Origin: a virus | Lineage: Duplodnaviria; Heunggongvirae; Uroviricota; Caudoviricetes | Direction: 5' to 3' (one strand) | DNA length: 51,464 nucleotides | IMG/VR virus record: IMGVR_UViG_646311923_000011 | Made by a program: the position numbers | In this document: one piece after another, positions 48,001 through 51,464 of the stretch | Layout of the letters: each line of letters begins with the position of its first letter | How positions within the stretch are numbered: position 1 is the stretch's first letter

Positions 48001-51000
48001 AAACCGTCAGTTCGTGGCAGAACGTCCAGACCAGTTGTGGGTGGCTGATTTTACCTGGGTAAGCACATGGCAGGGCTTCGTTTATGTGGCGTTCATCATT
48101 GATGTGTTCGCCGGATACATCGTGGGATGGCAGGTCTCATCATCCATGGAAACAACATTCGTGCTGGATGCACTGGAGCAGGCGTTGTGGGCCCGTCGGC
48201 CGTCCGGCACAATCCATCACAGTGATAAAGGTTCTCAGTATGTATCGCTGGCCTACACGCAGCGGCTTAAGGAAGCCGGATTACTGGCATCAACAGGGAG
48301 TACTGGCGACTCGTATGACAACGCGATGGCGGAGAGCATCAATGGTCTTTACAAAGCGGAGGTAATACACCGTAAGAGCTGGAAAAACCGTGCAGAAGTG
48401 GAACTGGCCACACTCACGTGGGTGGACTGGTATAACAATCGACGATTGCTGGAAAGGCTGGGCCATATTCCTCCGGCAGAAGCAGAAAAAGCTTATTATG
48501 CTTCCATCGGAAACGATGATCTGGCAGCCTGAGTTCACAGATAAAACACTCTCCAGGAAACCCGGGGCGGTTCAAACAGACATCATGGCCACCATTAATA
48601 TTGGCGAACTGATATGCCAGGATGAAGACCTGTCCGGAGAGCTCTGGCTTGCCGGGATGCTTATCTCAGCAGAAATTATCAGTATTGAACCCGCTACAAA
48701 CATACGGCTCTGAAGTTCTCGCTATTCAGAGAGCAGGAGAAAAAATGTTCTCTTTGATTAATCAGGGACAACTGTATACCGACAATGCCGATTACCCGGT
48801 AAAAATTGTTCGCTGCATAAACAACACTGTGTTGTACAGAAGAATGGATGGGCGAACACAGTCAGTAAAAATAAACGATTTCAATGAACTGTTTGAACGG
48901 ATTGATCACCAGGAATACCGACAAATTCTGGCAGAAACAGAGCAGGAAGCTCATCTGAAAAAATTACGGGCCATGAAAAGGAAGTAAAGAATGAATAAAG
49001 CGTTTGAGCTATGGGTGCGCCAGCGTTACGGCAATCGCTATGACCTGACGCGAGATGTTGACGGTTTCTACTGTCGTGAAATTGTGAAACGAATGTTTGA
49101 AGTGTGGTGCCACTGCCGTGGGCTGAGTGTTGTGTGAGGTAATGTATGAGCAATGTGATTCAACTGGCTCCCAATGAATGGGTTTGTGAAAGCGTTCTTA
49201 TCGCAATTACCGGGCTCAAACCAGGCACAATTCTCCGAGCCCGGAAAGAATGCTGGATGGTAGGAAGAGAGTATATTCACGTATCACCAGATGGTAATCC
49301 AAAGCCATCCAGCGAATGTATGTATAACAGAAAAGCAATAGATGCCTGGGTCGCTTCAATGAAAAACAAACAACCTGGGTGATTTAATGCCATGAAGTAT
49401 GTAAGCTCGTTTCGCTCTTGGGCGTCTGGAGGTATCAATGGATAAAGTCAAATATCCAACAGGCGTCGAAAACCACGGTGGCACATTGCGCATCTGGTTT
49501 AATTTTAAAGGTAAACGTGTCAGGGAAAATCTTGGTGTCCCTGACACTGCCAAGAACAGGAAGATCGCTGGAGAACTGCGGACATCGGTATGTTTTGCCA
49601 TCCGCACAGGAAACTTTGATTATGCTGCACAGTTCCCTGACTCCCCTAACCTTCAGGCTTTTGGGGTAAGTAAAAAAGAAATTACGGTGAAAGAACTTGA
49701 AGAAAAGTGGCTGGATCTGAAACGAATGGAAATCTCTGCAAATGCATTCAATCGTTATGAATCCGTTGCAAGAACGATGGTTCCGAAAATTGGAGGTAGC
49801 AGACTGGTGTCAACGGTGACCAAAGAGGAATTGCTGTATATCAGGAAAGATTTGCTGACCGGACACCAAAATCCAACAAAAGGTAAGGCTCCGGTAAAAG
49901 GACGAAGCGTTGTCACAGTAAATTATTACATGACGACAATCGCTGGAATGTTTCAGTTTGCTGCAGATCACGGTTACTTAGAAGCAAATCCCTTCGAGGG
50001 AATTAAGCCTCTTAAAAAAGCCAGGGCAGAGCCAGATCCGCTAACTCGTGACGAATTTATTCGCCTGATAGATGCTTGCCGACATCAGCAGACAAAAAAC
50101 CTGTGGTCATTGGCTGTGTACACAGGAATGCGTCATGGTGAACTGGTCTCCCTGGCCTGGGAAGATATCGATCTGAAAGCAGGAACAATTACTATCCGGC
50201 GCAATTATACGAAACTCGATGAGTTCACTCTACCTAAAACTGAAGCAAGTACTAACAGGGTTATACATCTTATCCAGCCCGCTATCAGTGTCCTGAAAAA
50301 TCAGGCTGAAATGACAAGACTGGGTAAGCAGCACCACATCAAGGTTCAACTACGTGAATATGGACGTTCAGTGAATCATGAATGTACTTTCGTATTTAAC
50401 CCCCAGGTGGTTAGAAAAAGCAAACAGGTAGGTTTTATCTACAAGGTAGATTCCATTGGCGACTCATGGGAATCAGCTATTAAGCGTGCAGGCATCAGGC
50501 ATCGAAAGGCATACCAGTCACGACACACTTATGCGTGCTGGTCATTATCTGCCGGAGCAAATCCAAGCTTCATTGCCAGCCAGATGGGTCATGCAAGTGC
50601 CCAGATGGTGTTCAATGTATACGGAGCATGGATGACTGACAGCAATGCAGAACAGATCGCAATGCTGAATCAGAAGCTGGCAGATTATGTCCCAATGATG
50701 TCCCATGGTCACCAAAGTGACACAAGAGACTTATTAAAATCAGTGGGTTAGCCTTCAATACCCGTCATGTTAACTGCGTGGAGGGCAACACCACGCTTTA
50801 CGCCCTGCCGAAACCCGAGGTTGTCCTGCGCTGGCGTGAACAGACCACAGATGACTTCCGCTTCTGTTTTAAGTTTCCGGCGACCATTTCGCATCAGGCA
50901 GCATTACGACATTGCGATGATTTAGTGACTGAATTTTTGACCCGCATGTCACCGTTGGCTCCGCGCATTGGGCAATACTGGCTGCAACTGCCTGCCACAT

Positions 51001-51464
51001 TCGGCCCACGGGAGCTGCCTGCGCTTTGGCATTTTCTCGATTCTCTCCCTGGCGAATTTAATTATGGTGTGGAAGTCCGCCATCCACAGTTTTTCGCCAA
51101 AGGGGAAGAGGAACAAACTCTTAATCGCGGTTTACATCAGCGCGGCGTTAATCGGGTGATTTTAGACGGCCGCCCGGTTCATGCAGCATGTCCACACAGT
51201 GAAGCTATTCGCGACGCTCAACGAAAAAAACCTAAAGTTCCGGTACATGCTGTACTGACGGCGACAAATCCGCTGATCCGTTTTATCGGTAGTGATGATA
51301 TGACGCAAAACCGGGAATTATTTCAGGTCTGGTTACAGAAATTAGCGCAGTGGCATCAGACCACTACGCCTTATCTTTTTTTACATACGCCAGACATTGC
51401 CCAGGCCCCGGAACTGGTACATACTGAACCGCCCCGGGTTTCCTGGAGAGTGTTTTATCTGTGA

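Follow-up and report, generated by a model that had tools for sequence, protein, structure and literature searches.

The window analysed here (the whole 51,464-nucleotide stretch of IMG/VR record IMGVR_UViG_646311923_000011) ends with a phage integrase gene, a DUF72 reading frame and the first bases of an insertion sequence, raising the question of whether that frame is phage or host DNA and where the prophage stops. A first-pass annotation had placed the prophage attachment junction inside the host gene yecE, with the gene cut again by IS629, and had proposed aligning the fragment with yecE of E. coli K-12 and locating the other prophage junction. With both comparisons in hand, we hold with high confidence that the window contains attR of a phiP27-type prophage integrated in yecE, and that the yecE remnant beside it was later hit by IS629, most likely as a simple insertion.

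Integration module and the reading frame downstream of int

The features at the right end of the window are:

49146..49382, plus strand: xis, excisionase gene, 78 aa (Pfam DUF1233 'putative excisionase', E=9.5e-33)
49438..50751, plus strand: int, phiP27-type tyrosine integrase gene, 437 aa, apparently intact (Pfam domains, Int identity)
50752..50769, plus strand: attR phage arm, 18 bp from int stop to core, partly yecE-like (attB/attL/attR/attP alignment)
50770..50780, plus strand: att core TTAACTGCGTG, attR copy (attL/attR comparison, phiP27 att)
50781..51424, plus strand: yecE 3' remnant, nt 97-740 of 819, or nt 86-740 with the core (97.9% to K-12, Pfam DUF72)
51422..51424, no strand: TAC, predicted left repeat of the 3-bp target duplication of IS629 copy 3 (expected from copies 1 and 2 and PMC3271280)
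51425..51464, minus strand: IS629 copy 3, first 40 bases, IRR end, at the window edge (exact match to the IRR ends of the full copies)

An intact tyrosine recombinase gene with both arm-binding and catalytic domains adjoins the junction, as the int product, which stops at TAG 50749-50751, carries the Pfam domains Arm-DNA-bind_2 (E=4.8e-24) and Phage_integrase (E=6.3e-18). This protein is 97% identical to phiP27 Int and 75% identical to EH297 Int; with phage phiP27, the identity over the xis-int DNA is 96%. Homologues of the xis product are annotated as excisionases in phiP27 and in RefSeq lysogens. The segment 48574-51424 has 100% nucleotide identity to several complete genomes, and the xis-int-yecE' arrangement was present in 308 of 5,426 complete E. 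coli genomes at a coverage of at least 80%. Judged by their sequences int, xis and the core are intact, and this Int has putative integration and excision activity.

In the K-12 MG1655 reference, yecE (b1868) is an 819-bp gene flanked by yecD and yecN. A BLAST comparison of the K-12 yecD-torZ region with the window, which supplied the alignment proposed earlier, gave a single match pairing yecE nt 74-740 with 50758-51424 at 97.9% identity over 667 nt. The exact match begins at 50770 (yecE nt 86), preceded by a patchy stretch at 50758-50769 in which 8 of 12 bases agree, and it ends at 51424, where K-12 continues with CCTGTGG... and the window reads TGAACCGCCCCGGG... instead. Window 50770-51424 corresponds to nt 86-740 of the 819-nt yecE, at 97.9% identity with K-12. 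The DNA of this fragment was found, annotated as yecE, in 5,425 of the 5,426 complete E. coli genomes, and its translation matches Pfam DUF72 (PF01904) with E=2.6e-46. As a sequence match to yecE, this is far above chance level.

The DUF72 frame opens at 50721, directly after an in-frame TGA at 50718, crosses the IS end and terminates at TGA 51462-51464, the final three bases of the window. The first-pass annotation had described a DUF72/YecE-like frame lying open immediately after the int stop with neither a start codon nor a ribosome-binding site, and this description agrees with the Pfam match and with what was seen upstream. The earliest canonical in-frame start is GTG 50778, which is yecE codon Val32 and falls within the att core; no Shine-Dalgarno motif was found upstream of it, and the interval from int to the yecE fragment showed no promoter-like site on the plus strand. 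Two details of that description need adjusting. The frame is indeed open right after the int stop, but the core begins 18 bp past it, and the open frame is yecE only from the core onwards, the bases upstream of the core being phage DNA that is partly yecE-like (the 8 of 12 bases above). Rather than a complete 272-codon ORF with its own start, the window contains a doubly truncated remnant of yecE, in which 85 nt are missing at the 5' end of the gene and 79 nt at the 3' end.

Pseudogene decay of this remnant was considered and rejected, since only 2 of 655 nt differ from the intact allele of strain 10205 and R169C, a difference from K-12, also occurs in that intact yecE.

Attachment core and prophage junctions

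The first-pass annotation had cautioned that a core cannot be defined from one junction, which is correct in principle; an IS-free lysogen and the ends of phiP27 resolved the matter here. The core was defined by aligning attB (K-12), attL and attR of the prophage in the complete genome of strain FWSEC0003, attR of the window and the joined phiP27 ends. The FWSEC0003 attL and attR have only an 11-mer in common, with zero extension of identity on either side, and the core is accordingly exactly 11 bp, TTAACTGCGTG, at window 50770-50780 (yecE nt 86-96). On its attL side, FWSEC0003 reads yecD, a 96-nt yecE stub and then prophage DNA, and on its attR side int, the yecE 3' part and yecN-cmoA-cmoB-torZ. 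In the IS-free lysogens, this run from the yecE 3' part through yecN-cmoA-cmoB-torZ is collinear with K-12. TTAACTGCGTG also stands at both ends of phiP27 (annotated as an 11-bp att, AJ298298) and once in K-12 yecE; repetition of the core at both prophage ends, as against a single copy in the empty site, was observed with FWSEC0003, the attL of the window's own genome lying outside the window. The att published for yecE phages, 5'-CAYGCAGTTAA-3', is the reverse complement of this core (PMC5592225).

The K-12 yecD-torZ search found neither yecD nor the yecE 5' end within the window, and attL is placed outside it because the 667-bp yecE match was the only one. By collinearity with FWSEC0003, the prophage begins 756 bp (~0.75 kb) to the left of window position 1, and attL is just outside the window. 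The other junction sought by the first-pass annotation was thus located in the near-identical FWSEC0003 prophage, as the 96-nt yecE stub on the yecD side, and the attachment junction does lie inside yecE as that annotation had claimed, the first 85 nt having been lost by prophage integration according to the attL/attR/attB comparison.

The 18-bp phage arm between int and the core is also present in phiP27. Read by eye, the yecE bases left of the core have an imperfect likeness in the phage arm of each integrase lineage (window 50758-50790; EH297, locus L005, 1900-1940), the sequence being CCCGCCACT in yecE, CCCGTCATG in this phage and GCCGTCACA in EH297. In the attP of this phage, the core is surrounded by a CCCGT...ACGGG dyad. 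The arm resemblance and the dyad possibly reflect putative core-type Int binding sites.

The use of yecE by lambdoid phages, which the first-pass annotation had named as an EHEC integration site, is documented for both Stx and non-Stx phages in GenBank records (AJ298298, AJ431361) and in the literature (PMC8065619, PMC5592225, PMC8112680). PMC8065619 counts yecE among the classical Stx-phage integration sites, with the phiP27 paper (Recktenwald & Schmidt 2002) as its source, and phiP27 is cited as the first phage described at this site. The window shares with the Stx2e phage phiP27 (AJ298298) the core TTAACTGCGTG, the 18-bp spacing from the int stop, the yecE target, an Int of 97% identity and xis-int DNA of 96% identity. 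The rest of the prophage differs, being that of a ~49-kb lambda-like element without stx and with espW and NleG-like effector genes. In the phage search, the match to the phiP27 record (42.6 kb) was confined to the xis-int end, window 49146-50780. The EH297, 258-320 and O145:H28 'PPyecE'-type phages (AJ431361, DQ231596, LC5678xx) occupy this position in yecE as well and likewise have int immediately before the 3' part of the gene; the 19-bp attR core annotated for them, CCGTCACATTAACTGCGTG, ends in the same 11-mer. These phages differ in carrying a second integrase lineage, with 75% protein and ~74% DNA identity to the Int described here, and their authors give a longer att of 19-21 bp (PMC8112680, PMC5592225).

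IS629 copies in yecE and in the prophage

The 40-bp IS end seen at 51425 is present three times in the window, and two of these belong to complete 1,310-bp elements that are identical to each other:

44351..45660, minus strand: IS629 copy 1, complete 1,310 bp, duplication GAT, inside a 71-aa hypothetical prophage gene
47265..48574, plus strand: IS629 copy 2, complete 1,310 bp, duplication AAC, inside the prophage DUF5406 gene

Both complete copies have the traits of IS629, with a length of ~1.3 kb and terminal inverted repeats starting TGAAC, both ends beginning TGAACCGCCCCGG. Each contains orfA (Pfam HTH_Tnp_1), orfB (Pfam rve) and an ALIL frameshift pseudoknot (120 bits), and each matches the annotated IS629 of phage BP-4795 (AJ556162) at 98.7% identity over the full 1,310 bp. 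Copies 1 and 2 are simple insertions, because each maps to one point of the IS-free FWSEC0003 prophage with a 3-bp overlap and is flanked by a perfect 3-bp duplication, and on the same grounds a rearrangement was rejected as the origin of these two copies. The 71-aa gene hit by copy 1 overlaps the start of a ParE-like toxin gene.

IS629 duplicates 3-4 bp of its target, and prophages or prophage-like elements contain 62% of the O157 copies (PMC3271280). The copies seen here, clustered in a prophage and flanked by 3-bp duplications, fit this published behaviour. The elements described from prophages and backbone genes of EHEC/STEC (PMC3271280) likewise share the 1,310-bp length, orfA/orfB and the ALIL pseudoknot. 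What differs is the insertion point of copy 3 at yecE nt 740/741, which occurs in 0 of 5,426 complete E. coli genomes and in only two drafts.

Copy 3 lies 79 nt before the yecE stop. Its end at 51425 is the orfB-proximal repeat (IRR), with the transposase on the minus strand, pointing left towards the prophage. The inverted repeat reported at 51425 in the first-pass annotation is an IS629 end, namely IRR and not IRL, and the double disruption of the host gene claimed there is upheld, with the prophage at nt 86-96 and IS629 at nt 740/741. Contigs from two independent NCBI draft assemblies (L009 and L010; GCA_002459855.1 and GCA_002461545.1) encode exactly the truncated hybrid protein of the window. 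They reach 138 and 343 bases further into the element, agree there at every base with copy 2 read in reverse complement, and have an rve-domain ORF on the minus strand. Both contigs have the yecE junction but an intact DUF5406 gene and thus no copy 2, so the yecE::IS629 insertion is a separate, heritable event.

The left junction of yecE::IS629 was found in none of the IMG/VR viral contigs, GTDB representative genomes or JGI metagenomes, in addition to its absence from the complete E. coli genomes. A predicted right junction (IS629 IRL, 0-6 bases, yecE 3' end) had no match in the metagenomes and representative genomes, and the only ORF that would exist across it is a 37-aa antisense ORF.

Copy 3, whose right flank lies outside the window, is most likely a simple insertion with a TAC duplication. 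Alternatively, the IS629 at 51425 could be the breakpoint of an IS629-mediated deletion or inversion, in which case the DNA beyond it would not be the rest of yecE and yecN. This is an unlikely reading, though one with some points in its favour: the right flank of copy 3 had no match in the collections searched, IS629 is clearly abundant in the genome, with three copies in 7 kb of this window, and O157 genomes show matching duplications on both sides at only 21 of 47 IS629 sites (PMC3271280), so that a sizeable share of copies lacks a clean duplication. Against it, both complete copies in this same prophage are cleanly duplicated single-point insertions, the yecE::IS629 junction is stably common to at least two other assemblies, and copy 3 itself gives no positive sign of rearrangement. 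Under a simple insertion, the 1,310-bp IS629 would close with ...GGATTTCCGGGGCGGTTCA and be followed by the second TAC; the remaining 79 nt of yecE (CCTGTGGGAAGACTTACGTAAAACG..., CCTGTGGGAAGACTTACG...) and yecN would come next.

All three IS629 copies fall in a 7.1-kb stretch, in which copies 1 and 3 share one orientation and flank xis-int-attR. Copy 2 is inverted relative to copy 3, and the IRR ends of this pair point inward. Homologous recombination among the three could delete or invert the integration module and so lock the prophage in place. Such IS-based deletion or inversion is a known route of prophage decay in STEC.

Proposed history, annotation and prophage context

In the proposed course of events, the tyrosine integrase would have recombined phage attP with attB inside yecE at the 11-bp core TTAACTGCGTG, splitting yecE into a 96-nt 5' stub next to yecD at the far end and a 3' part directly after int. 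The left junction would be expected to read yecD, yecE nt 1-96 ending TTAACTGCGTG, then ATACGGGATTTTTAAAAATC..., ~0.75 kb outside the window. Later, IS629 would have transposed into the yecE 3' part at nt 740/741 with its transposase facing back toward the prophage, and two further IS629 copies would have landed in early-region genes of the prophage. Integration probably preceded the IS hit, because the prophage junction is widespread and the IS junction rare. The twice-disrupted yecE is presumably non-functional. Excision of the prophage would restore attB and leave yecE::IS629, and since the gene is disrupted twice, excision alone could probably no longer restore yecE.

RefSeq/PGAP annotates the yecE 3' part of IS-free lysogens as WP_042854221.1, a 256-aa 'DUF72 domain-containing protein' (loci L002, 3994-4764, and L008, 5941-6711), which starts at a non-canonical ATT in the int 3' end, equivalent to window 50733. 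This annotation hides the truncation of yecE by the prophage, and we regard the CDS as an annotation convenience that does not argue for a phage gene. Across the phage arm, the yecE frame stays open for 16 codons and partly resembles the codons it replaces, with NTRHV in place of YARHF. It is conceivable, if quite improbable, that IS-free lysogens make a hybrid, N-terminally substituted YecE by reinitiation after int, from ATT 50733 or GTG 50778. In that event integration would leave the target gene effectively active, and IS629 would be the real knockout in this lineage. The resemblance of the arm DNA to yecE is more simply explained as part of a putative core-binding site of the integrase.

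That the frame after int is instead a complete phage-borne gene, whether a moron or a phage copy of yecE, has practically no chance of being correct and is refuted by the attL/attR/attB comparison: the PGAP CDS does overlap the int 3' end in IS-free lysogens and there are 16 open codons of its frame before the core, but that CDS begins at ATT with no promoter-like site or Shine-Dalgarno motif found, the DNA from 50770 matches the chromosomal yecE of strains free of the prophage at 98-99.7% identity and runs on into yecN-cmoAB, the 5' 96 nt of yecE that are missing here lie at the other prophage end next to yecD, and the phiP27 genome ends at the 11-bp core with no DUF72 gene beyond it.

Taking the frame as a host yecE remnant, every component of the locus is of a known kind: the yecE attB, a phiP27-type Int/Xis module with the published core, and IS629. 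The prophage occurs nearly unchanged in several finished genomes, and what is uncommon is solely the precise site of the IS629 insertion. The importance of the locus beyond annotation is small; the right prophage boundary is fixed at 50770-50780, the window start is placed ~0.75 kb inside the left boundary, and the integration module is typed as phiP27-type. Assays of yecE occupancy, by PCR or in silico, and excision tests would be confounded by the extra 1.3-kb IS629 in this lineage. The rare yecE::IS629 junction (0 of 5,426 complete genomes, 2 drafts) might be used to mark a lineage.

The whole window is collinear with, and 99.2-99.4% identical to, the prophage of O45:H2 FWSEC0003 and of O45:H2/O103:H2-type genomes, FWSEC0003 and the related collinear prophages being without the IS copies. 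The prophage is a ~49-kb lambdoid, stx-negative, effector-carrying element with a phiP27-type integration module. Window position 1 is the exact end of a CDS and 51462-51464 is the TGA of the hybrid yecE'-IS ORF, and for this reason the window boundaries look gene-defined and not biological; the IS at 51425 does not look as if it were really cut at the window edge. The left end (window 1-4000) carries type III secretion cargo, with names taken from 99% identity to the FWSEC0003 annotation:

1-591, minus strand: 'bfpT-regulated chaperone' gene
775-1425, plus strand: DUF1076/NleG-like gene
1504-2562, plus strand: espW
2690-3325, minus strand: DUF1076/NleG-like gene

Window 30016-33193 has a Stx-phage-like layout without stx. 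Downstream of a DNA methyltransferase gene there is a group of tRNAs, Arg-TCT, Arg-TCG and one with a CAT anticodon that is called Met by ARAGORN and Ile by PGAP, and TerB, DUF3927 and DUF6645 genes stand at the place that the stx genes occupy in Stx phages. Three Rfam matches were above the gathering score: a C4 antisense RNA (82 bits) and isrK (64 bits), adjacent to each other in the Rha/Ash regulatory region (40062-40250, minus strand), and STnc100 (104 bits; 32003-32175, minus strand).
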